Assembly: GCA_964413015.1 (NCBI GenBank)
Contig: CAYPQZ010000008.1
Coordinates: 37,387-101,386, forward strand
Length of the DNA stretch: 64,000 bases
Direction of reading: 5' to 3'
DNA from: an uncultured Candidatus Saccharibacteria bacterium
Lineage (GTDB): Bacteria; Patescibacteriota; Minisyncoccia; Portnoybacterales; UBA2143
Position numbers and translations under genes: made by a program. Within the stretch, counting starts at the first letter, position 1, and every line of letters starts with the position of its first letter. The notes under the pieces were generated by a model. The model searched no databases. It was not told the DNA's origin and was given only the letters and a program-made list of their open reading frames with translations. Shown here piece after piece: positions 3,051 to 57,990 of this stretch.

Positions 3051-3509
3051 TCATTTTGCAGATAAGGATTTGATAATAACTTTTCGTTCCGTGCCATCGC
3101 CAACACTTTCGGTAGTTATTTGTGAATCGCCAGCCAAAGCTAAATGAATAACTCTTCTGTCATAGGCAGACATTGGACGAAGCGTTACAGCTACTTTTTC
3201 CGATAAAACCTGCTTGGCAACATCCTTAGCCAGTTCTCTCAAAAGTTCAATTCTGTATTTTTTGTAGTTGTTGACATCCAATACGAAATAGACAAGCTGG
3301 TTGCTTTTTCTGTTGATTATCATTCTGATTAAATGCTGCAAGGCCTCTAAATTAACGCCTGACTGGCCAATTAAAAATCCAGCCTGTTCTGTTCTAACAT
3401 TGGCCAAAATATTGTTTTTATCGGAGGCGTCAACTTCAACTTCGCCTTTGAAATTCATTTTATTCAATAAATCAATTATGGTTTCTTTAATAGTCTCTTC
3501 AAAATTCAT
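3051..3509 (-). CDS. jag: Jag/KhpB-like RNA-binding protein (KH + R3H domains)
   Basis: C-terminal R3H-like motif (RRVIHLALAGDSQITTESVGDGTERKVIIK). It sits in the conserved position downstream of yidC in the rpmH-rnpA-yidC-jag cluster. Confidence 0.7.
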   Translation of the reverse strand: MNFEETIKETIIDLLNKMNFKGEVEVDASDKNNILANVRTEQAGFLIGQSGVNLEALQHLIRMIINRKSNQLVYFVLDVNNYKKYRIELLRELAKDVAKQVLSEKVAVTLRPMSAYDRRVIHLALAGDSQITTESVGDGTERKVIIKSLSAK

Positions 3510-15527: not shown

Positions 15528-15635
15528 ATATTTATACCTTAATGATACTATTGATTAAAAAGGAGTGTCAATGGATAGATGGAATAAAGGACAGTTTAAA
15601 AATTTAAGGACTGTCTTTTAATTAATCGCTTATTT

Positions 15636-18185: not shown

Positions 18186-21100
18186 TTAGCCGGCGACCCT
18201 TTCCACTTCTTCCAGGGTCGTTTTTCCTTCAAGGGCCTTAAGTAATCCGTCCTGATAAAGGGTTAACATACCGTTTTTCTTAGCGGTTTCTTCTATCTGG
18301 GTTGGGCTGGCTGAAGCCAGAATTTCTTTTTTTATCTCTTGATTGGTAATCAATATTTCAAAAATACCTATTTGTCCCTGATATCCTTTCTGGTTGCATT
18401 TCCGACATTTTCCTGGTTTATATATTTTAATTTTTTTAATCTGTTTTTGATAAGGAGCTGGCATTTGCTTAAGCTCTTTTTTAATTTTCTCTAAGGCCTC
18501 TGGCTCTATTTCAGCTTCTTTTTTACAGTAAGGGCAGAGTTTTTTGACTAACCGTTGAGCCACAATTGCTTTGATTGAAGAGCTGATATCGCCGCTTCTT
18601 ATCTTAAGATTAGTCAGTCTTTGAATCGCTTCGGCGGCACTGTTGGTGTGAAGCGTGGTTAATACCAGATGTCCGGTCAGAGACGCCTGAATAGCCGATT
18701 GGGCGGTTTCCGGATCCCTGATTTCTCCCAGCATAATAATATTGGGGTTTTGTCTAAGCAGGGCTCTTAGGGCTTCAAAAAAAGTATATCCTTCCTCTTT
18801 GTTAATCTGTGTTTGAATAACGCCCGGCAGGCGGTATTCAATTGGGTCTTCAATAGTGAATATCTTGGTTTCTGGCTGGTTAAGCTTGTTCAGGATTGAA
18901 TAAAGAGTGGTTGTTTTACCAGCGCTGGTCGGTCCGGTTACAAAGATGATTCCGTTGGGCGATTTGATCACTTTCTCTAAATCTTTCAGCAATTCCGGTC
19001 GGACGCCTAATTCTTTCAGCGAAATAATGGCTATGTCAGATCTGAGCAGACGGATAATTACCGATTCTCCATAGCCGCTTGGGATAACCGAAACTCGAGT
19101 GTCGTAAATCTGTTTGTCAGGACATTCTATCTTAAACCGTCCGTCCTGGGCTTTTTGATGAACGTCAACTTTCATACCAGCCAGTTCTTTGACATAAGAG
19201 ATAGTCGGCAAGAACAATTCCTTGGGAATTTCAGCTATTTTTTCCAGAGAACCGTCTATACGCAATCTTACGGTAAAACTTGTCTCGGCTGTTTCAAAGT
19301 GAATATCAGTAGCTTTTAATTTTATGGAGACAGCGACAATCCATTTTATTAGATTCTCCATTTTGGCAGCAATTAGCTTTTTCTGGATTTCGTCTTTGTT
19401 AAAAGTTAAGGACTGCGACCATTCAAAAATTTCCCGGTCAATAACTAAAGCTCGGCTGAGCATTGACATAATCGATTCTCCGTAAAGCTGTTCAATATAT
19501 TGAGGATAACCAATAACTCTTTGAACTTCTTCCAGCGAAGTTATTCCTTCAATAACTCTTAGCATAGAGTCCTGCATTAGTGTGAGCATGCCTTCTTCCA
19601 TGGCCTTAGCTCTAAGTTCATAAGAGGTGGCTTGCTTGAGAATTAGCTTTTCAATGGTATCATTAATCGTGAATAATTCAAAAATCCCAATTCTCCCTTT
19701 ATATCCTAACCCATTGCATTTTTCGCACCCTTTAGCTTTATAGAATTTAGATATCTTTTTAGGAATATCGACCCCTGATTTCGCAGAAATTAAAGAGAAA
19801 ATCTTTTTTGCGCTTTCAATCATTTCAGGCGAGGGTTCGTAAGGTTCTTTGCAATAAGGACATAATCTTCTGACTAAACGCTGGGCAATTACCAGATTAA
19901 GTGAAGCCGGAATTAAGAACGGTTTAATTCCCATTTCAGTAAGACGAGGAATAGCTCCGGCAGAATCATTAGTGTGAACTGTTGAGAAGACTAAGTGTCC
20001 GGTTAAAGCGGACTGGACGGCAATTTGAGCGCTTTCCGCGTCCCTAATTTCCCCAACCATCAAGGCGTCGGGATCTTGCCGGACGACTGTTTTTAAGGTT
20101 TTAGCGAATGTTTGGCCTTTGCGTTTACTGACTTGAGTCTGAGTAATCCCTTTAAGTTTGTATTCAATCGGGTCTTCGACGGTAATAATTTTGGTTTCCG
20201 ACTTGTTAATGTAATTAAGGCAGGCGTAAAGAGTGGTCGTTTTTCCTGAGCCGGTCGGTCCGGTAGTCAAAATCATCCCATTGGGCCTGATAATTTGGCT
20301 TTCAACTTTCTTGAAAGATTCGGGCCTAAAACCTAAATTAGGAAGATTTAATTGGACGGCTTCGGAATCTAATAACCGCATAACAATGCTTTCTCCAAAG
20401 CTGCTTGGCAGAATGGAAACTCTAATATCAATACTCTTAACAAGCTCTTCCTGGTCCATAATCTTAATTGTAAAGCGGCCATCCTGTGAGATGTCATGGA
20501 CGTTAAGCAGCATGCTGGATAAAGTCTTGACTCTGGAAAGGGAAAACCTGTAGGCCTTGGCAGGGAAAACAGCAATGTCCTGAAGTAATCCGTCAATCCG
20601 GTAACGGAGCCGGATGATATCTTTGCTTGGTTCAAAATGGACATCGGAGGCGCCCATTTTGATAGCTCCAGCCATAATAATCGTTAAAAGACGGGTGGTT
20701 GAAAAATTAATGATTGTTTTTTTAAGTTCTTGGATTGTCTTTAGCGATTGCTCAAACTCTTTCAGCTCTTTTTCTTGGATAACAAAATCGTCTTTCAAAG
20801 AGGCAACTTCAAGGTCTATCATTTCATAGTAAGATCGTTTTTTTATTAAGCTGCTTGAGGAGACAATTACTAACTTGCATTCAAATCCTTGCTTTTGAAG
20901 TTCTTCAATAATCTGTTTTGTATTGGGATCGCCGGGATTTTTAACAGCCACTTGAAGAGTTTTCCCGATTTTTCTGATAACTAAAATGTTTCCTTTTTCA
21001 GATTTTTCTTTTTCTAGGATGGCTAAATCCTTGGCATCAACTGGCAATAAATCCAGTTTGATGTAGGGAAGATTGAGTTTTTCCGCCAAACGCTTAGCCT

Positions 21101-21215
21101 CGTTTTCTTCTTCCTGGCGCTTTATTCGACTAATTTTCCTTTCAAAATTTTTCATCTCATCAAGACGTTTTCCTTTTTCAAAAGCGGCTGGATTTGTAAC
21201 ATTAGGTTGACTCAT
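18186..21215 (-). CDS. Tandem-duplicated type II/IV secretion system ATPase (two complete GspE/PilB modules fused in one 1009-aa polypeptide)
   Basis: Each half carries a GspE N-domain, Walker A (GPTGSGKTTTLY / GPTSAGKTTTLY), DPIEY, Asp box (GEIRD), His box (LTGHLVFSTVHTN / LTGHLVLTTLHTN) and a tetracysteine zinc motif (CPYCK...C.KCN). Confidence 0.8.
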   Translation of the reverse strand: MSQPNVTNPAAFEKGKRLDEMKNFERKISRIKRQEEENEAKRLAEKLNLPYIKLDLLPVDAKDLAILEKEKSEKGNILVIRKIGKTLQVAVKNPGDPNTKQIIEELQKQGFECKLVIVSSSSLIKKRSYYEMIDLEVASLKDDFVIQEKELKEFEQSLKTIQELKKTIINFSTTRLLTIIMAGAIKMGASDVHFEPSKDIIRLRYRIDGLLQDIAVFPAKAYRFSLSRVKTLSSMLLNVHDISQDGRFTIKIMDQEELVKSIDIRVSILPSSFGESIVMRLLDSEAVQLNLPNLGFRPESFKKVESQIIRPNGMILTTGPTGSGKTTTLYACLNYINKSETKIITVEDPIEYKLKGITQTQVSKRKGQTFAKTLKTVVRQDPDALMVGEIRDAESAQIAVQSALTGHLVFSTVHTNDSAGAIPRLTEMGIKPFLIPASLNLVIAQRLVRRLCPYCKEPYEPSPEMIESAKKIFSLISAKSGVDIPKKISKFYKAKGCEKCNGLGYKGRIGIFELFTINDTIEKLILKQATSYELRAKAMEEGMLTLMQDSMLRVIEGITSLEEVQRVIGYPQYIEQLYGESIMSMLSRALVIDREIFEWSQSLTFNKDEIQKKLIAAKMENLIKWIVAVSIKLKATDIHFETAETSFTVRLRIDGSLEKIAEIPKELFLPTISYVKELAGMKVDVHQKAQDGRFKIECPDKQIYDTRVSVIPSGYGESVIIRLLRSDIAIISLKELGVRPELLKDLEKVIKSPNGIIFVTGPTSAGKTTTLYSILNKLNQPETKIFTIEDPIEYRLPGVIQTQINKEEGYTFFEALRALLRQNPNIIMLGEIRDPETAQSAIQASLTGHLVLTTLHTNSAAEAIQRLTNLKIRSGDISSSIKAIVAQRLVKKLCPYCKKEAEIEPEALEKIKKELKQMPAPYQKQIKKIKIYKPGKCRKCNQKGYQGQIGIFEILITNQEIKKEILASASPTQIEETAKKNGMLTLYQDGLLKALEGKTTLEEVERVAG

Positions 21216-27924: not shown

Positions 27925-27949
27925 AGTTTTTGATTATTGTGTAATTCCT

Positions 27950-28283
27950 TGGAGATGGCGGGAATCGAACCCGCGTCTAAAAGGCATTTCTTAATAATTC
28001 TACAAGCTTAGCTTGATTTGGATAAAATTAAAAACTTAAAACCAAGCAAAAAATTTTTAATTTTTGTTTCTAAGATTCAACAATCAGCTGAAACCTTCCG
28101 ATTGTTTATCCTGATAGGATAACACCCAAAGCTTTTCATCAGGAGTCAAAAGTTCGGATGGCTACTTATTTAAGCAGTAGCAAAAGCTAAATTTTCGTTA
28201 GCAATTATTAGTTTGCGAGATTAACGAGTTCGCGCTCGGCTTGCTTATTAAAAAAAGAACTTTTATCGATGCCTGGCATCCCC
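27950..28283 (-). ncRNA. ssrA: tmRNA (ssrA)
   Basis: Reverse strand: the 5' GGGGAUGCCAGGCAUCGA pairs with the 3' ...GACGCGGGUUCGAUUCCCGCCAUCUCCA (tRNA-like T-arm + acceptor). The internal tag frame GCU AAC GAA AAU UUA GCU UUU GCU ACU GCU UAA (ANENLAFATA*) parallels ANDENYALAA. It lies immediately downstream of smpB. Confidence 0.75.
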
Positions 28284-28352: not shown

Positions 28353-28802
28353 TTACTCCTTTTGCCGCAAGGCTCTGCCAATGTTTCTTTTAGCTTCACG
28401 TTCCTTAATTTTTTCTCGCTTGTCTGCTTTTCTTTTGCCCTGTCCCAGGCCGAATTCCAGTTTTATCAGGTTGTGTTTAGTATAAACGTGCAGAGGCACT
28501 AAAGTCAAGCCTTTCTGTTTTGTTTTGCCGATTAAACTCTTAATTTCTTTTTTATTCAGAAGCAGTTTTCTGGATCGGTCTGGCTGATAATTGTCAGGCG
28601 CGTTTTTTGGCTGATAAGGAGGCAGGAAAGCGTTAATCAGCCAGGCCTCTTGGTCTTTAATCGTTACGTAAGCGCCTTTTAAACTCATCCGGCTTTTTTT
28701 AATTGATTTAACTTCCTGGCCAGTCAAAACCAGCCCTGCTTCAAAGGTGTCTAAAATATGGTAATCAAATTTGGCCCGCGGGTTGGTCGCTAAAGTAGGC
28801 AT
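28353..28802 (-). CDS. smpB: SsrA-binding protein SmpB
   Basis: 149 aa starting NPRAKFDYHILDTFEAGLVLTGQEVKSIK, a canonical SmpB. Confidence 0.9.
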   Translation of the reverse strand: MPTLATNPRAKFDYHILDTFEAGLVLTGQEVKSIKKSRMSLKGAYVTIKDQEAWLINAFLPPYQPKNAPDNYQPDRSRKLLLNKKEIKSLIGKTKQKGLTLVPLHVYTKHNLIKLEFGLGQGKRKADKREKIKEREAKRNIGRALRQKE

Positions 28803-30587: not shown

Positions 30588-33500
30588 ATGGAACCACTTC
30601 CTAAAATAGAAAAAAGAATATTGAAATTTTGGCAGAAAGAGAATATTTTTGCCAAATCAGTTAAGCTTCGTCAAAAGAAGCCATTTTTTAGTTTTTACGA
30701 CGGCCCGCCTTTTGCGTCCGGCTTGCCTCATTACGGCCATATTTTAGCCAGTACAATTAAAGATACTGTTTTGCGCTATTGGTCTATGAAAGGCCGACAT
30801 ATTTTTTGGCGAGTCGGCTGGGATTGTCACGGACTACCGGTGGAAAATATGATTGAACAGGAATTAGGTCTGAAAAATAAAAAGGATATTGAAAAATTCG
30901 GGATTAAGAAATTCAATCAAGCCTGCCGTCAATCGGTTTTTCGCTGTATTAATGATTGGTATAAGTTTTTTAATCGGATTGGCCGCTGGTCTAATTTTTC
31001 CCAGGCCTACGCCACTCTGGACAATGAATATATTGAATCGGCTTGGTGGGTTCTTAAGCAATTATGGGAAAAAGATTTGGTCTATCAGGATTTTAGGGTT
31101 ACCCCTTATTGCCCGCGCTGCGGAACTCCTTTGTCTAATTTTGAATTAAATCAACCCGGCGCTTATCGGCAGGTTGAAGACGAATCTGTTTATCTTAAAT
31201 TTAAACTTAAAAAATCGACCAATACTTATTTATTAGTTTGGACGACTACTCCTTGGACTTTAGCCGCTAACACGGCTGTCGCTGTTAGCCCGGATTCCCA
31301 ATATGTCAAAGCCAAACGAGGCAATGAATATTTAATTTTAGCTAAGGAGAGGTTGTTGGTTTTAGAGGATTATAAAATCGTTGATCAATTTCCCGGTCAG
31401 GAATTAATCGGCCGGGAATATCAGCCTCTCTATCCGATGAAATTGGATAAAGCGGGTTACCGGGTTGTTCCGGCTGACTTTGTTTCAATAGAAGACGGGA
31501 CCGGTTTGGTCCATATTGCGCCAACTTTCGGTGAGGAAGATATGGAATTAGGCCAGAAAGAAAATCTGCCCGGACTGATTACCGTTGACCAAGAAGGCAA
31601 GGTAGTCAAGGGTTTGGGTATCCCCGGTCAGGGCAAGTTTATCAAAGAGGCCGATGCTGATATTAAAGCCGATTTAAGGAAAAGAAATTTATTATTCCGA
31701 GCGGAAAAAATTACTCACGCTTATCCTTTCTGCTGGCGTTGCGAAAGCCCCTTGCTGTATTATCCGATTAACAGTTGGTATGTGAAAGTAACTAAATTTA
31801 AGAAAGAATTAGTGAAGAATAATAAAGAAATCAAATGGGTTCCTGGCCATTTGAAAAAAGGCCGTTTTGGCAAATGGTTAGAAGGGGCGCGCGATTGGTC
31901 TATTTCCCGAAATCGTTATTGGGGAGCGCCGATTCCTATCTGGCAGTGTCAGAAATGCGGCCGAGTTGAAGTCATAGGCAACTTGCAGGAAATGGCTCTT
32001 CGGACCAAACGCAACTGTTACTATATTCTGCGTCATGGCCAGACAGTTAATAACCTGAAAAAAATAATTTATACCGACCAAGAAAACAAACAGAGGCCGT
32101 TAACTCAAGCAGGTCGGCGCAAGATTAAATGGCTAATTCCTAAGCTCAAAAAAACCAAAATAGATTTAATTTTTACTTCTGATTTTTTTAGAACTTCCCA
32201 AACTGCTTCTATAATTAGTCAGGCCTTGGATATCAAAGTAATTTATGACAAACGCTTGCGTGATGTGGATGTGGGTTTATTTAAAGGCAAATCTATAAAA
32301 GAATATCATACTTATTTTCAGGATAATAATTTGAAAAGATTCCAAGAGAAAGCTCCCGGTGGCGAGAATCTCAAACAGGTCAAAAAAAGAGTGATGAATT
32401 TTCTCTTGGCGGTTGATAAAAAATACCGGCACAAAAACATTCTGATTATCAGTCACGGTGATCCACTTTGGATTCTCAAGGGAGCCAGCCAGGGATTTAA
32501 CAATGAGCGGTTGGCCAAGAACAGAAATAAAGAACTTGTTCAACCCGGCCAATTAGAAACGCTTAAGTTTAAAAAACTTCCTTTTGACCAGGAAGGCAAC
32601 TTGAATTTGCATCGGCCTTATGTTGATCAGTTAGAGATTCCCTGCCCTTGCGGCGGAATCATGACTAGGACTTCCGAGGTTTTTGACTGTTGGTTTGAGT
32701 CAGGCTCAATGCCTTACGGTCAGTGGCATTATCCTTTTCATAATAAAAAGTTGGTGGAAAAGGCCTTCCCGGCTGATTTTATTGCTGAAGGTATGGACCA
32801 GACGCGAGGCTGGTTTTACACTTTGCATGTTTTGGCAACCGCTCTGACCTTGAAAAATATTGGCTTAGGCAAAAACAAGCCGGCTTTTAAAAATGTTATT
32901 GTAAACGGTTTAGTTTTAGGCGAAGACGGCAAGAAGCTTTCCAAGCGTTTAAAAAATTATCCTGACCCGGAAATTGTTTTTGACAAATATGGAGCAGATG
33001 CTCTGCGCTATTATTTATTAACTAGTACACCGATGGGCGAGGACTATATTGCTTCAGAAAAAAGAATTGCCGAAACTTTTCGCCGGACTATTTTAACTTT
33101 TTGGAATTCCTTTACTTTTTTGGAAACTTATACGGATAAAGAATGTTTAGCGCCCAAATCAGTCCAGCCAAAAAATATTTTGGATAAATGGATTATTTCC
33201 CGGCTCAATTCTCTCAATCAGGAGCTAGTCAATTGGCTGGATAAATACGAACTGACTAAGGCTGCTCGTTTACTTGACGAATTTTTGGACGATTTTTCCA
33301 ATTGGTATGTTCGGCGTTCCCGCCGCCGTTTTCAAAGGCCTAATAATCCGATTGAAAAAAAAGAGGCCGAACAAATTTACTCTTTTGCCCTTTTGCGCTT
33401 AGCTAAATTGTCGGCTCCTTTTATTCCCTTCTTAACCGAAGAAATTTATCAACATTTAGAAAAGGGAACTTCGGTCCACTTATGTGATTATCCAAAGCCG

Positions 33501-34013
33501 GATAAAAAATTAATTGACAAACGGTTGGAAGAAAAAATGTCGCAGTTACGTCAATTAGCCGCTGAAGGATTGGCCCAAAGAGCTAAAGACGGAATTAAAG
33601 TTAGACAGCCGTTGAAAAAAATGACAATTAATAACAAGTTGATAGCGGCTGGCAAAGAATTGGCCGGTTTGTTGGCTGAAGAAGTCAATGTCAAAAAAAT
33701 TGTTTTGGGTAAAAGCATTAGTCTGGATACTAAAATTAGCCCGGCTCTTAAAGCTGAGGGGACTATTCGCGATTTAGTCCGTTCAATTCAGGAAATGCGC
33801 AAAGACGGCGGGTTAAAGCCGCAGGACAAAATTTATCTGCGCTATTCAACAGATTATTCTTTAAAAAAATTGATTCAGAAAAACGAATTGATTATTAAAG
33901 CGGAAGTTTCAGCCAGACAAATAGAAGAAGCCACTAAAAGAAAAGAAGTTTTTCTGGTCGAAAGAGAAGTTAAGTTAGATGGGCAGAAAATCTGGCTGGG
34001 GATTAAGAAATAA
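30588..34013 (+). CDS. ileS: Isoleucyl-tRNA synthetase (type 2) with embedded histidine phosphatase (PGAM-like) domain
   Basis: 1141 aa with HIGH (PPFASGLPHYGHIL) and KMSKS (KLSKRLKNY). An insert of about 170 aa (approx aa 470-640) carries LRHGQT...SDFFRTSQTA...ISHGD, the RHG/His-phosphatase signature. Confidence 0.9.
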   Translation: MEPLPKIEKRILKFWQKENIFAKSVKLRQKKPFFSFYDGPPFASGLPHYGHILASTIKDTVLRYWSMKGRHIFWRVGWDCHGLPVENMIEQELGLKNKKDIEKFGIKKFNQACRQSVFRCINDWYKFFNRIGRWSNFSQAYATLDNEYIESAWWVLKQLWEKDLVYQDFRVTPYCPRCGTPLSNFELNQPGAYRQVEDESVYLKFKLKKSTNTYLLVWTTTPWTLAANTAVAVSPDSQYVKAKRGNEYLILAKERLLVLEDYKIVDQFPGQELIGREYQPLYPMKLDKAGYRVVPADFVSIEDGTGLVHIAPTFGEEDMELGQKENLPGLITVDQEGKVVKGLGIPGQGKFIKEADADIKADLRKRNLLFRAEKITHAYPFCWRCESPLLYYPINSWYVKVTKFKKELVKNNKEIKWVPGHLKKGRFGKWLEGARDWSISRNRYWGAPIPIWQCQKCGRVEVIGNLQEMALRTKRNCYYILRHGQTVNNLKKIIYTDQENKQRPLTQAGRRKIKWLIPKLKKTKIDLIFTSDFFRTSQTASIISQALDIKVIYDKRLRDVDVGLFKGKSIKEYHTYFQDNNLKRFQEKAPGGENLKQVKKRVMNFLLAVDKKYRHKNILIISHGDPLWILKGASQGFNNERLAKNRNKELVQPGQLETLKFKKLPFDQEGNLNLHRPYVDQLEIPCPCGGIMTRTSEVFDCWFESGSMPYGQWHYPFHNKKLVEKAFPADFIAEGMDQTRGWFYTLHVLATALTLKNIGLGKNKPAFKNVIVNGLVLGEDGKKLSKRLKNYPDPEIVFDKYGADALRYYLLTSTPMGEDYIASEKRIAETFRRTILTFWNSFTFLETYTDKECLAPKSVQPKNILDKWIISRLNSLNQELVNWLDKYELTKAARLLDEFLDDFSNWYVRRSRRRFQRPNNPIEKKEAEQIYSFALLRLAKLSAPFIPFLTEEIYQHLEKGTSVHLCDYPKPDKKLIDKRLEEKMSQLRQLAAEGLAQRAKDGIKVRQPLKKMTINNKLIAAGKELAGLLAEEVNVKKIVLGKSISLDTKISPALKAEGTIRDLVRSIQEMRKDGGLKPQDKIYLRYSTDYSLKKLIQKNELIIKAEVSARQIEEATKRKEVFLVEREVKLDGQKIWLGIKK

Positions 34014-34149: not shown

Positions 34150-34211
34150 TAAGGGCAGTCTTTAAAATTACGCCCTTGTGCTCAAGGGACATAATTTTAA
34201 GGACTGTCCTT
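34150..34211. repeat. Palindromic P element copy (AAGGRCAGTCTTTAAAATTACGCCCTTG...CAAGGGACATAATTTTAAGGACTGTCCTT)
   Basis: About 60-bp imperfect hairpin. The same family occurs at 277..338, 55744..55803 and 57931..57990, with short relatives at 15587..15620 and 56803..56832. Confidence 0.7.
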
Positions 34212-48620: not shown

Positions 48621-48704
48621 TGCCGGAGGCGGGAGTCGAACCCGCAAGGACCGAAGTCCACAGCATTTTGAGTGCTGCGTGTCTGCCAGTTCCACCACTC
48701 CGGC
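48621..48704 (-). tRNA. tRNA-Leu (anticodon CAA), type II with long variable arm; CCA not encoded
   Basis: Reverse strand GCCGGAGUGGUGGAACUGGCAGACACGCAGCACUCAAAAUGCUGUGGACUUCGGUCCUUGCGGGUUCGACUCCCGCCUCCGGCA. It has a 7-bp acceptor, a CAGCA/UGCUG anticodon stem with loop CUCAAAA, and a GCGGG/CCCGC T-stem. Confidence 0.85.
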
Positions 48705-51959: not shown

Positions 51960-51978
51960 TAGGTTTATTGTAATACCT

Positions 51979-52006
51979 TGACAATTGATATGTAAAGACT
52001 AGAATT
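51979..52006 (+). promoter_or_regulatory. Sigma70-like promoter for the NUDIX gene
   Basis: TTGACA (51979-51984), a 16-nt spacer, TAGAAT (52001-52006). The RBS AGGAGG lies 10 nt upstream of the ATG at 52079. Confidence 0.45.
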
Positions 52007-52078
52007 TAGATAGATTAAGTTCTTTTTAATTTGACTGAGCAACAAACCTTCTAAAAGGACTGAAAGGAGGTTTTTATA

Positions 52079-52585
52079 ATGAAAGAGAAAAGAGTGAAGG
52101 CCGATTTGGTGGTAGCTGGTTTTCTGAAAAATCAAAGAGGCGAAGTTTTATTAGTAGAAAGGAATGACGATTGGACCTTGCCTACCGGGCATATGGACAT
52201 TAGCAGAGACAGTAATTTGAAGGAAACTGTTAATAGAGAAATGAAAGAGGAATTGTCGGGACTGAAAAGGTTGATTATCGTTGAATCGCTGGATACTTTT
52301 GTAAGACATTCTGAGTTGGTGAGAAACAAGGGCAGTTCTTTAAAGTCCAAATCTATAGCAATCTATTCATGCAACGTGTATGACAGCGAAATTGAGTATT
52401 TTAATGAGGGAGGCACAAGAAAGAAAAAAATTTGGATAAGGCCGTCTCAAGCGCTAGGATTAGATAACTTAGATGATTTAGCAAAGTTTGCTATAAATAT
52501 GTTCTTAAAAAGGTATTCCGGCAAGAAAGAAAATGGAGGTAATGGAAATGTCAAAGTCAATCCCAACAAAGACTCTATCAAGTAA
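52079..52585 (+). CDS. NUDIX hydrolase
   Basis: 168 aa with a Nudix box (GHMDISRDSNLKETVNREMKEELSG). Confidence 0.75.
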   Translation: MKEKRVKADLVVAGFLKNQRGEVLLVERNDDWTLPTGHMDISRDSNLKETVNREMKEELSGLKRLIIVESLDTFVRHSELVRNKGSSLKSKSIAIYSCNVYDSEIEYFNEGGTRKKKIWIRPSQALGLDNLDDLAKFAINMFLKRYSGKKENGGNGNVKVNPNKDSIK

Positions 52586-55743: not shown

Positions 55744-55803
55744 AAGGACAGTCTTTAAAATTACGTCCTTGTTCCAAGGAGCATAATTTTAAGGACTGTC
55801 CTT
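55744..55803. repeat. Palindromic P element copy (about 20 bp upstream of the dprA start, abutting a consensus promoter)
   Basis: AAGGACAGTCTTTAAAATTACGTCCTTGTTCCAAGGAGCATAATTTTAAGGACTGTCCTT. Confidence 0.7.
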
Positions 55804-55813
55804 TAATTAGGGG

Positions 55814-55841
55814 TTGACAAATTCTGTCATTTTGATATAAT
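55814..55841 (+). promoter_or_regulatory. Near-consensus sigma70 promoter (TTGACA-16-TATAAT)
   Basis: TTGACA 55814-55819, a 16-nt spacer, TATAAT 55836-55841. It drives a ~165-nt structured leader and the small ORF at 56016. Confidence 0.55.
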
Positions 55842-55852
55842 ATGGATAGTTT

Positions 55853-55984
55853 TTAGCCCTTATCAGCCTGCCTAGTGAGTCGCTGATGTCGAACAACCCC
55901 TCCTAATGTTTGATTAAGCATAAATTTGGGGATGGCTGCTTTTGTAGCTTCTTTCCAAAACTCCTAGGCGGGCTGACAAGGGCT
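55853..55984 (+). ncRNA. Candidate structured 5' leader/cis-regulatory RNA closed by a 23-bp long-range helix
   Basis: UUAGCCCUUAUCAGCCUGCCUAG (55853-55875) is the near-exact reverse complement of CUAGGCGGGCUGACAAGGGCUAA (55962-55984), with 1 G-U wobble and 1 mismatch. It encloses about 86 nt and lies between a consensus promoter and the RBS-bearing ORF at 56016. Confidence 0.35.
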
Positions 55985-56015
55985 AAATTATAGTTTCTTT
56001 AACAAGGAGGAAATT

Positions 56016-56267
56016 ATGAAAAGAAAAATCTTTAGTTGGATTTTAGGATTTTTTGGATTACTGGGTTTTGCTATGATTCTTGCGTCAGCAATTGTCTCTT
56101 GGCTGGTAAATTCGTTTTTCTCAGAAGCTAAGGTGATGACTATCAGTGGTTTTCTATTACTAGTTGTCGTTTTAATCATTGGATTGCTTTTTCGTGAAAA
56201 AGAATCTATGCCATGGGATGAAAACTGGCAAAAAATTGTAAAAGGGAAAAGGGGAGTACATAGATAA
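56016..56267 (+). CDS. Small two-TM membrane protein (hypothetical)
   Basis: 83 aa with a strong RBS (AAGGAGG 8 nt upstream) and two hydrophobic helices. Confidence 0.4.
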   Translation: MKRKIFSWILGFFGLLGFAMILASAIVSWLVNSFFSEAKVMTISGFLLLVVVLIIGLLFREKESMPWDENWQKIVKGKRGVHR

Positions 56268-56278
56268 TAGCAAAATTT

Positions 56279-56791
56279 TTATAAGGTCGCTAATATTAAA
56301 TTAGCGGCCTGTTTTATTACCTGTTCAGCAATTACTTCTTCTTCCGTCGTGAATTTTTGGAGAACAAACTTCTCAACATTAAGCTGTTTGGCTTGGGCCG
56401 GCCGGACGCCTATTCTTATTCGGATAAAATCTTTACTGTTCAGCGAATCAATTATTGATTGAACGCCTTTGTGTCCGGCCGCTCCTCGTCCCTGCTGAAC
56501 TTTAATTTCTCCCAAAGGTAAATCAATATCGTCGTGAATAACTAAAATGTCCTCAACAGGAATTTTGTAATAATCAGCGATTGATTTTACGGCGGCTCCT
56601 GAATTGTTCATAAAGGTTTGCGGCTTAGCCAGAATAACTTTTTGATTTTTGATTTTCTTTTCGGAAATCTTCGCGTTAAAGGCCGATTGGAATTTTTCAG
56701 CTAGTTCGTCTATTGCTCTAAATCCGAGATTATGACGGGTTTTTTTGTATTTGATTCCTGGATTCCCCAGGCCGACAATTAATTTCATCAT
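56279..56791 (-). CDS. pth: Peptidyl-tRNA hydrolase
   Basis: 170 aa starting MKLIVGLGNPGIKYKKTRHNLGF, the canonical Pth motif. Confidence 0.9.
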   Translation of the reverse strand: MMKLIVGLGNPGIKYKKTRHNLGFRAIDELAEKFQSAFNAKISEKKIKNQKVILAKPQTFMNNSGAAVKSIADYYKIPVEDILVIHDDIDLPLGEIKVQQGRGAAGHKGVQSIIDSLNSKDFIRIRIGVRPAQAKQLNVEKFVLQKFTTEEEVIAEQVIKQAANLILATL

Positions 56792-56818
56792 ATGTTTATA
56801 AGGAAGGTCTTTAGAAAT

Positions 56819-57868
56819 TTAAGGACTATCCTTGATTGCTTCTTTAATATACTCTTTGATTTCTCCATAGTTTCCTTGTCCTTCTTTTGGATAAACAACC
56901 GAAGCTCTTTGTTCTCCGAACATTAATTGTCCACCGACTAACAGATTAGTTTCTTTTTTATCAATTACCAAGCTAACTATTTTATCTGCTCCGATATCTT
57001 TAGCTGTTTGCCAAAGCGACTTTATCTTTAACAAGCTCAAGTCGGTTTCAATATGGTCGTTTAGAGAATTAAAAATTTTCAGGTAAGTCGGAAAATCCCA
57101 GAGTGGATTTAAGGACAGAACTTTTTGCTTGATAAGCTGGATAATCTGCTGCTGTCTGGCCATTCTGTCAAAATCTCCGTTAGGAGAGGTATATCGTGTG
57201 CGGACATATTTAAGAGTTGTTTCGCCGTCTAAGTAACGCCAACCGGCCGAAAGGTTGAAAGCCTGATAGGAATAATTAGGGCCGGGGAAATAGGGGTCTT
57301 GGATATCCTGCGGCACATAAACATTCAGGCCGTCAATTACTTCAATAACTTCTTTAACCACAGCTAGGTCAACAATTACGTGATGGTCAATAAACAATCC
57401 AGTAATCTCTTGTATTTTTTCCTTAAGGCATTCAATCCCACATCTGGCATAAAGCGAATTTATTTTCGTCAAAGCTTCCTGACCGGGAATTCTAACCAGC
57501 AAGTCGCGAGGCAGAGAAATTAAAACGGCTCTTTCCTGATTCGGTATTAAGTGTGCCAGAATGATAGTATCAGTTAATTTTTGTCCGGAATATCCGGCAC
57601 CCGGACGGCCGAGAACTAAAACATTGGTAGCCAATACATCTTTTTTATCAGCTAGCGAAATTGGGATTAAATTGATAGCTATTTTGTTTTTGTCTGTATC
57701 TTGATTGGCGGAAATTTCAATTGAAGAAGATGGGATTAATTGAAAAATTAAGATTATGGAAGAAGCCACAAGCAAAACAAAAACAACTAAACAGGCAATT
57801 TTCATTTTTCTTTTGTTCTCTTCGCGGCGTTTTTTTTCTAAGAAATTAATTTGTTTAGCTTGAGACAT
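56819..57868 (-). CDS. LytR-CpsA-Psr (LCP) family cell-envelope phosphotransferase
   Basis: 349 aa with an N-terminal TM and an LCP core (NVLVLGRPGAGYSGQKLTDTIILAHL ... YVRTRY). Confidence 0.8.
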   Translation of the reverse strand: MSQAKQINFLEKKRREENKRKMKIACLVVFVLLVASSIILIFQLIPSSSIEISANQDTDKNKIAINLIPISLADKKDVLATNVLVLGRPGAGYSGQKLTDTIILAHLIPNQERAVLISLPRDLLVRIPGQEALTKINSLYARCGIECLKEKIQEITGLFIDHHVIVDLAVVKEVIEVIDGLNVYVPQDIQDPYFPGPNYSYQAFNLSAGWRYLDGETTLKYVRTRYTSPNGDFDRMARQQQIIQLIKQKVLSLNPLWDFPTYLKIFNSLNDHIETDLSLLKIKSLWQTAKDIGADKIVSLVIDKKETNLLVGGQLMFGEQRASVVYPKEGQGNYGEIKEYIKEAIKDSP

Positions 57869-57930
57869 TTTTTTATTGTAGCATTTAAAATAATTAAAGG
57901 ACAGTTTAAAAATTTAAGGAAGGGGAAACT

Positions 57931-57990
57931 GATAAGAACAGTCCTTATCGTCAGCGTATTCCAAGTGACATCATTTTAAGAATTGTCCTT
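57931..57990. repeat. Palindromic P element copy (diverged) in the divergent LCP/lepB promoter region; preceded by AAGGACAGTTTAAAAATTTAAGGA submotif at 57891-57920
   Basis: GATAAGAACAGTCCTTATCGTCAGCGTATTCCAAGTGACATCATTTTAAGAATTGTCCTTTAATTAG. Confidence 0.55.

Follow-up and report, generated by a model that had tools for sequence, protein, structure and literature searches.

What does the strongest promoter in this stretch of Patescibacteria DNA transcribe? The promoter lies between dprA and pth in the 64-kb stretch of contig CAYPQZ010000008.1 analysed here as a whole (the window), and a sequence-only reading had described the leader behind it as riboswitch-like, controlling a small membrane-protein open reading frame (ORF) of 83 codons, here called ORF83. 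We found that the leader holds a structured small RNA (sRNA) with a three-way junction, located at 55848..55990 of the + strand (end approximate), as judged from its fold, a covariance-model score of 136 bits, its orthologues and their covariation. It represents a lineage-specific, single-copy small RNA gene of Candidatus Portnoybacteria-like Patescibacteria, narrowly distributed and previously undescribed.

Promoter, fold and covariation of the RNA

A motif scan identified a sigma-70-type promoter at 55814..55841 (+), composed of TTGACA, a 16-nt spacer and a TG-extended TATAAT. With both strands scanned, this was the only 12/12 sigma-70 match in the window, and four 11/12 sites were found elsewhere in it, so that the rare strength first ascribed to this promoter held up. 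The block from -35 to -10 was near-identical in relatives, with the RNA present or absent. The somewhat longer promoter block GGGGTTGACAAATTCTGTCATTTTGnTATAAT (window 55807-55841), compared in L003, L004, L006, L007, L009, L010, L017, L082, L095 and L096 (the L numbers designate loci of relatives), was almost the same across species and conserved beyond the neighbouring proteins. Its spacer contains the palindrome TGACA-N5-TGTCA, a possible candidate operator of some regulator.

The 5' end of the RNA, predicted from the -10 box, falls at about 55848, which gives a leader of ~168 nt up to the ATG at 56016, in agreement with the ~165 nt, ribosome-binding site and 83-aa ORF with two transmembrane (TM) segments that had been read from the sequence. 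A survey of the window genes placed the Shine-Dalgarno (SD) sequence of ORF83, AAGGAGG, at 56004..56010 (+), and the ORF list and family comparison placed the small two-TM membrane protein of 83 aa at 56016..56267 (+). A terminator-like hairpin at 56284..56310 (+), with 11 pairs followed by GUUUUAUU, closes the RNA-ORF83 unit before the convergent pth. The complete order is topA (-), dprA (-), promoter, RNA, ORF83, hairpin, pth (-) and lytR (-).

The near-perfect long-range helix of the sequence-only reading proved to be real. Its arms, 55852-55875 and 55964-55987, are 24 nt long and 92% complementary with 88 nt between them, and no further copies of the arm sequence were present in the window, where 0 were expected by chance. 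In the minimum free energy (MFE) fold, the closing helix comprises 27 pairs (55852-55880 with 55960-55987). The 148 nt from 55848 on the + strand folded at -70.6 kcal/mol, compared with -36.7 ± 3.7 kcal/mol for 200 shuffles (z = -9.1), and the - strand at -57.8 kcal/mol, i.e. 13 kcal/mol worse. The better fold of the + strand, together with its many G·U pairs, indicates that + is the transcribed strand.

The closing helix, P1, is formed by a 5' strand at 55852..55880 (+) and a 3' strand at 55960..55987 (+), begins ~4 nt from the predicted 5' end and measures 27-32 bp across the family. As helix 1 of the alignment it has 28 pairs, 94% paired, 14 of them changed on both sides. Its outer ~12 bp covary freely. 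The inner half (AGCCUGCCUAG.GAGU) is near-invariant, including GCCUGCC at 55866-55872; here AGCCUGCCUAG.GAG pairs with CUCCUAGGYRGGCU, within which the conserved GGYRGGCU at 55967-55974 includes a conserved G·U pair. The P2 arm (55882..55919, +) consists of P2a, 3 bp between 55882-55884 and 55917-55919, and of an 8-bp P2 stem (55888-55895 with 55907-55914) that encloses an 11-nt loop, with compensatory changes in both P2a and P2. The P3 hairpin (55925..55959, +) has ~14 bp with an internal loop and a UUUU tetraloop, which is UUUU or UUCG across the family; as helix 4 it has 15 pairs, nine changed on both sides. P3 abuts the 3' strand of P1 with 0 unpaired nucleotides between them; P1 stacks on P3, and P2 is a side arm.

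RNAalifold on plain MAFFT alignments returned the same fold as the single-sequence MFE prediction. In the MAFFT alignment of 13 sequences, 94.1% of cells were standard pairs and two-sided (compensatory) changes occurred in 29 of 50 pairs; column shuffles gave 15.6 ± 2.4 such pairs, with 0/500 reaching the observed number, and a slid-partner control gave 7-13. An alignment of 17 rows (16 distinct) showed two-sided changes in 27/49 pairs. Compensatory changes were present in all four helices, and we are highly confident that this is a real, functional structured RNA.

Conserved sequence is concentrated in three places: the P2 loop, inner P1 and the junction J2/3, where AAAGAU is invariant and unpaired. 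In the P2 loop, ACCCCUCCUAA at 55896..55906 (+) with the anti-SD core CCUCCU, the alignment columns do not vary, in contrast to the covarying stems. Across the family the loop reads A-A/C-Y-CCCUCCUA, also written AYCCCUCCUA, and it was unchanged in 16 distinct full-length members and also in three variant forms. Its predicted unpaired probability was 0.85-1.00 in 21/21 sequences.

Several other pairings and motifs were considered and rejected. The C-rich and G-rich tracts enclosed by the helix had been thought to pair with each other; they do not, since CCCCUCC is unpaired in the P2 loop and GGGGAUGG pairs with UUUCC inside P3; changes in the G-tract are matched in the 3' strand of P3, whereas the C-tract is the same in every member. 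No support was found for a pseudoknot of the P2 loop with the 5' strand of P3, where the variants GGAG, AGAG, AGGG and GGGG occur next to an unchanged loop. The hammerhead-like CUGAUG...CGAA in J1/2 of the window was not conserved in orthologues, nor was the likeness of the P1 3' strand (CUCCUAGG) to the loop (CUCCUA) conserved in basal members.

In this genome, transcription probably runs on past the RNA into ORF83. An A/U-rich spacer at 55988..56003 (+), recognised by the recurrence of the motif AGUUUYUUUAACA among relatives, follows P1. The motif AGUUUUUUAACA recurs 3' of P1 in the window and in L082, L099, L096, L089 and L100, and its position suggests that it may be a site of processing or of weak or leaky termination; the terminator scan called no canonical terminator at 55988..56003.

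Distribution, natural variants and independence from the ORF

DprA relatives among species-representative genomes yielded 79 loci. In the closest of them (Parcubacteria, 'Candidatus Portnoybacteria'; DprA identity 65-80%), promoter and RNA were found directly upstream of dprA on the opposite strand. A covariance model, R1, built from six sequences scored the window RNA at 136 bits, found full-length copies in L003, L005, L011, L014 and L017 at 133-155 bits, and found a shortened copy in L010. It also matched L022 1-127 (-) at 21.5 bits; this match, cut by the contig end, lies in a Patescibacteria metagenome-assembled genome of 54% GC, divergent from mfd, and shows the same CCCCUCCUA loop on a P2-like hairpin as well as a P3-like hairpin. 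Tentatively, L022 may be a distant homologue of the sRNA. When a DNA pattern of the family was run against a metagenome collection, 12 of the 15 matches were true members (7 new sequences) and three were false positives; against viral contigs it gave 0 matches. Contigs of eight further DprA clusters supplied four new full-length or variant members (L097, L099, L100 and L104). They also included L102, whose copy is identical to that of L096, L103, the second short form after L010, and two more genomes without the RNA.

In total, orthologues were present in about 20 genomes or metagenome contigs, all Candidatus Portnoybacteria-like. Every member lies between dprA and pth, in the order topA-dprA / RNA / pth-lytR, and no second copy of the RNA was found in 84 kb of this genome. 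Conservation and covariation outside this genome, which had been named as the check on the leader, are thus borne out by these orthologues and their compensatory changes. L012, whose region is masked with Ns, was left out of the judgement of presence and absence. In the DprA tree, RNA-bearing genomes occurred at the base of the clade and throughout it, and genomes lacking the RNA fell in one or two nested groups, one of which adjoins L010. From this distribution, the RNA is ancestral to the clade and was lost repeatedly.

Three natural variants alter the architecture. In L010 and L103 P3 is wholly absent and the fold is reduced to P1 plus P2. In L104 (Portnoybacteria RIFCSPLOWO2_12_FULL_39_9), an extra 22-bp hairpin between P2 and P3 produces a four-way junction with a folding energy of -120.6 kcal/mol. 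The P2 loop and P1 were kept in all of them. A hairpin of the type AAGGAC...GUCCUU inside the L104 sRNA is similar to the palindromic repeats of the window described in the last section.

The RNA and the small ORF occurred independently of each other. The RNA was present without the ORF in L005, L011/L083 and L093, where a hairpin with an A-tract, a GC stem and a U-tract follows within ~10-20 nt of the RNA and precedes the end of pth; the loops of these terminator-like hairpins are 8-9 nt long, so they were missed by a simple terminator scan and were shown by folding. These ORF-less copies retain the full fold through compensatory changes. Conversely, the ORF was present without the RNA in L004, L006, L007, L009, L098 and L101. 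In the first four of these, an SD and a small two-TM ORF lie 25-45 nt behind a near-identical promoter, GGGGTTGACAAATTCTGTCATTTTGnTATAAT. RNA and ORF are therefore separate modules, often served by a single promoter and a single terminator, and we consider it likely that the RNA functions independently of the ORF and is not a riboswitch. Because at least six genomes have the ORF but no RNA, and three lineages the RNA but no ORF, we also rejected a type I toxin-antitoxin system.

With or without the RNA, the small ORFs constitute a loose family with the pattern MKKK..GF.G..GF...LGGVG..E..., and a word search returned three homologues of ORF83. No Pfam family scored above threshold for ORF83 or its relatives, so its earlier description as transporter-like is unsupported.

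The P2 loop and the role of the RNA

The window is poor in SD sequences. AGGAG or GGAGG at SD spacing was found in 3 of ~51 window genes: ORF83, a Nudix gene (52079) and an M16 peptidase gene (38062). Strong -10-like hexamers cluster 6-7 nt before the ATG in seven genes, which suggests that the genome has many leaderless mRNAs. Among Parcubacteria, Tsurumaki et al. (PMC9297842) reported the anti-SD motif CCTCCT in only 48% of the 16S rRNAs.

We regard as the best explanation, although a tentative one at rather less than even weight, that the RNA is a regulatory sRNA, stand-alone or borne in a 5' untranslated region, whose loop pairs with the rare SD-led mRNAs. We infer that the RNA is expressed and stable, as well as the pairing of loop and SD, the targets and the direction of regulation. 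The RNA would be made from its own very strong sigma-70 promoter. P1, lying near the 5' end, would confer resistance to end-dependent nucleases, and possibly, because its inner half is conserved in sequence, it would also be a site of double-strand-specific processing or of protein recognition. An abundant nuclease-resistant RNA exposing CCCUCCUA would then meet few complementary sites, namely the rare initiation regions led by an SD. The exposed P2 loop would be the seed, pairing with AGGAGG-type purine tracts at ribosome-binding sites and blocking initiation. Its targets in trans would be the few mRNAs led by an SD in a genome that is poor in SDs and largely leaderless; when the transcript also carries the small membrane ORF further downstream, the loop could act in cis as well, on the SD of that ORF. 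This base-pairing mechanism of the anti-SD loop we hold to be possible rather than probable. At 51978-52585 (+), a second strong promoter, TTGACA-16-TAGAAT (11/12), is followed by a ~67-nt leader, one of the rare strong SDs (AAAGGAGG) and a Nudix hydrolase gene; an anti-SD sRNA may have this gene as a target, or the gene may carry a leader of its own.

By its proposed mechanism, the RNA would be closest to the anti-SD or C-rich-loop sRNAs, which are a functional class and not one homologous family; it is not homologous to them and differs in architecture. Within this class, the cuckoo or CcsR RNAs of Alphaproteobacteria (RSs0680, alpha-r14) have an anti-SD-like CCUCCUCCC loop as their sole conserved element, with stems that vary by compensatory mutation (PMC4615179), and they frequently share a transcript with the gene of a small protein (PMC8034643). 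The RNA described here likewise has a conserved anti-SD-like hairpin loop, CCCUCCUA in place of CCUCCUCCC, and its gene layout suggests frequent co-transcription with a small protein gene. However, cuckoo RNAs belong to another phylum and carry 2-4 tandem motif hairpins without a closing helix, whereas this RNA has one motif loop, a three-way junction and a ~30-bp helix, and gave no Rfam match at E <= 10. C-rich loops whose pairing partners are SDs or G-rich stretches in several mRNAs have also been described in 6C of Actinobacteria (PMC6486639), sX13 of Xanthomonas (PMC3771888) and SprX (PMC4005690). These RNAs, including the SprX/RsaE type of Firmicutes, are chaperone-independent C-rich-loop sRNAs and resemble ours in that respect, its own pairing being only proposed. 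They are short, with 2-3 simple hairpins and CCCC or UCCC loops, whereas the present RNA is larger and more rigid, with a full CCUCCU core and with no sequence or structure homology to them (no Rfam match). Measured against the class as a whole, it has an invariant loop motif on a covarying stem, a motif that is single-stranded by prediction only, and one motif loop instead of at least two motif-bearing hairpin modules.

Several observations weigh against a regulatory sRNA that pairs with SD sequences. A generic SD would pair with only 6-7 nt of the loop, yet ~10-11 nt are invariant, and invariance of the full loop would be explained no less well by a protein or by one specific partner RNA. 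Loop base-pairing leaves the sequence conservation of inner P1 unexplained. The SDs of the downstream ORFs are complementary to the loop over no more than 6-7 nt, and they are equally strong in genomes without the RNA. Nor did we find in these loci any target with extended loop complementarity; the extended loop complement TAGGAGGG occurred elsewhere in them only within the hisS coding sequence (L-G-G residues), at no start site. The RNA has a single seed loop, compared with two to four in most anti-SD-loop sRNAs, and its repeated loss in sub-clades shows that it is dispensable.

The main rival to SD pairing, which we consider unlikely though worth weighing closely, is that the RNA is a protein-binding decoy or scaffold whose loop and inner P1 are bound by a protein that the RNA titrates or delivers. 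Candidates would be a binder of the 16S 3' end (an Era-type KH domain, bS21/bS1 or a maturation RNase) or a KH protein of the KhpA/B type. The KH domain of Era binds the GAUCACCUCC tail, and the loop AAUCCCUCCUA resembles the 16S rRNA 3' tail GAUCACCUCCUUA, a short likeness with one nucleotide missing. Such a partner would be consistent with the invariance of all 10-11 loop nucleotides, and not merely 6, and with the conservation of the inner 14-15 bp of P1, G·U included, next to an outer P1 that covaries. A rod of P1 and P3 with a side arm is also typical of a ribonucleoprotein scaffold, and a KH/R3H (KhpB/Jag-like) protein is encoded at window ~3051-3509. However, no protein co-occurs with the RNA in the locus, and the candidate proteins, being universal, are presumably still present in the sub-clades from which the RNA has disappeared.

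The RNA could also be a cis leader of the small membrane ORF, with P1 as a 5' stabiliser or RNase III-type stalk, a loop that masks the SD, and ORF-less copies that are relics. The gene layout would place the RNA and an SD-led small ORF on one transcript in most members, without an intervening terminator; 6-7 nt of the loop are complementary to the SD of the ORF, and P1 starts close to the predicted 5' end. A near-perfect helix of ~30 bp is a canonical RNase III substrate. In having such a helix near the 5' end, the RNA is like the RNase III stalks and 5' stabiliser helices of rRNA precursors and of the pnp and rnc leaders, but here the helix encloses a conserved sRNA core, not rRNA, and its inner half is conserved in sequence. 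This explanation is rendered improbable by the ORF-less copies in L005, L011/L083 and L093: as they keep the full structure by compensatory changes, the RNA is under selection by itself. Furthermore, in at least six relatives that lack the RNA, the ORF still has its promoter and a strong SD, and the loop and the SD flanks show no co-variation.

A bolder version of SD pairing, which we put forward as a long shot, is that the RNA is a free-standing anti-SD module carrying CCUCCU for a lineage of mostly leaderless or SD-less genes. If so, it would govern the whole small set of SD-led mRNAs and might compete with the ribosome, or replace or titrate the factors that recognise the 16S 3' tail, which would constitute a new layer of translation-initiation control specific to the reduced genomes of the candidate phyla radiation (CPR). 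Parcubacteria and Portnoybacteria are uncultured and ultra-small, with minimal regulatory repertoires, and no regulatory RNA of this lineage was found described in the literature searched. The family offers a candidate active site together with natural deletion and insertion variants that map its dispensable parts; if the loop acts on SD-led mRNAs or on 16S 3'-end factors, it provides a testable route into the control of initiation in CPR bacteria, and if the loop mechanism is wrong, Rfam would still gain a clean new RNA family.

The riboswitch proposed at the outset, a ligand-sensing aptamer controlling the downstream small membrane protein, is largely refuted, and we now consider it very improbable. 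It drew on a conserved junction and on invariant unpaired nucleotides (J2/3 AAAGAU and the P2 loop) upstream of an ORF. A ligand could not plausibly open a P1 of 28-32 bp in a fold of -70.6 kcal/mol, and the association of RNA and ORF fails in both directions. No expression platform was conserved; the hairpin after P1 that buries the SD and AUG in the window (-10.4 kcal/mol) was rejected as such a platform, being not conserved in 11 relatives. Dispensability of P3 and tolerance of a large hairpin insertion in the junction are both unlike a ligand pocket, the ORF family has no transport or metabolic annotation, and no Rfam class matches.

That the RNA belongs to no recognised class, as the sequence-only reading had held, was confirmed with Rfam 15. 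At the gathering threshold, the window, 12 orthologous loci and 20 kb of extra flanks contained only a tmRNA and one tRNA, both elsewhere. Neither the RNA nor its orthologues gave a match at gathering score or at E <= 10; matches at E <= 10 were only chance microRNA and snoRNA matches, located on the neighbouring palindrome, and no known housekeeping RNA was hit.

Least credible of all is that the RNA is a divergent universal housekeeping RNA (6S, signal recognition particle (SRP)/4.5S or Y RNA) or a selfish palindromic element, i.e. a miniature inverted-repeat transposable element (MITE) or a repetitive extragenic palindrome (REP): it is a single small gene with a strong promoter and a long terminal helix, and REP-like palindromes do exist in the genome, but Rfam gave no match even at E <= 10, an essential RNA would not be lost in sub-clades, and the copies are orthologous, syntenic and single in 84 kb, with arms that diverge by compensatory, G·U-tolerant and + strand-specific changes unlike those of a MITE or REP. 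6S RNA was rejected on the grounds that the P1/P3 rod is unpaired only on its 5' side, P3 abutting the P1 3' strand, and that the RF00013 clan gave no match at E <= 10. For SRP RNA, P3 ends in UUUU or UUCG and the other apical loop is the 11-nt C-rich one, with no GNRA loop or domain-IV motif and no Rfam SRP match. The RNA is like 6S and Y RNA in being single-copy, 100-200 nt long and driven by a strong promoter, with its ends paired in a long helix; it differs in lacking the two-sided central bubble of 6S RNA and the Ro-binding bulged helix or tRNA-like module of Y RNA, in being dispensable in sub-clades and in having no Rfam match.

Other features of the window and its flanks

The only RNAs of the window recognised by Rfam are the tmRNA (146 bits; 27949-28283, -), located beside smpB (28353-28802, -), and the tRNA at 48621-48704 (-). 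Within 10 kb past each window end, no rRNA, SRP RNA, 6S RNA or RNase P RNA was found.

An arm search revealed REP/MITE-like palindromic repeats with arms AAGGACAGTCYTTAAAATTA, with nine arm matches where 0.07 were expected. Copies lie at 277-336, 34151-34211 and 55744-55803, and partial ones at 15599-15618, 56814-56833 and 57899-57990. The copy at 55744-55803 is an insertion that separates the start of dprA from the sRNA promoter, and none of the relatives has one at that position; a copy of the repeat occurs elsewhere in L017.

The product of the gene at 18186-21215 (-) is a type II/IV secretion ATPase; its 1008 aa contain two T2SSE stretches, so that a PilB-like ATPase has apparently been duplicated or fused here. 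Immediately to the left of the window, L105 12500-21287 carries a cluster that resembles conjugation or type IV secretion systems (TraC/VirB4-like ATPase, PrgI and TrbL) and adjoins the dnaA-dnaN origin region of the small genome. At 30588-34013 (+), the window encodes an isoleucyl-tRNA-synthetase-like protein of 1141 aa, in which a His_Phos_1 domain occupies residues 479-642 inside the class I core.

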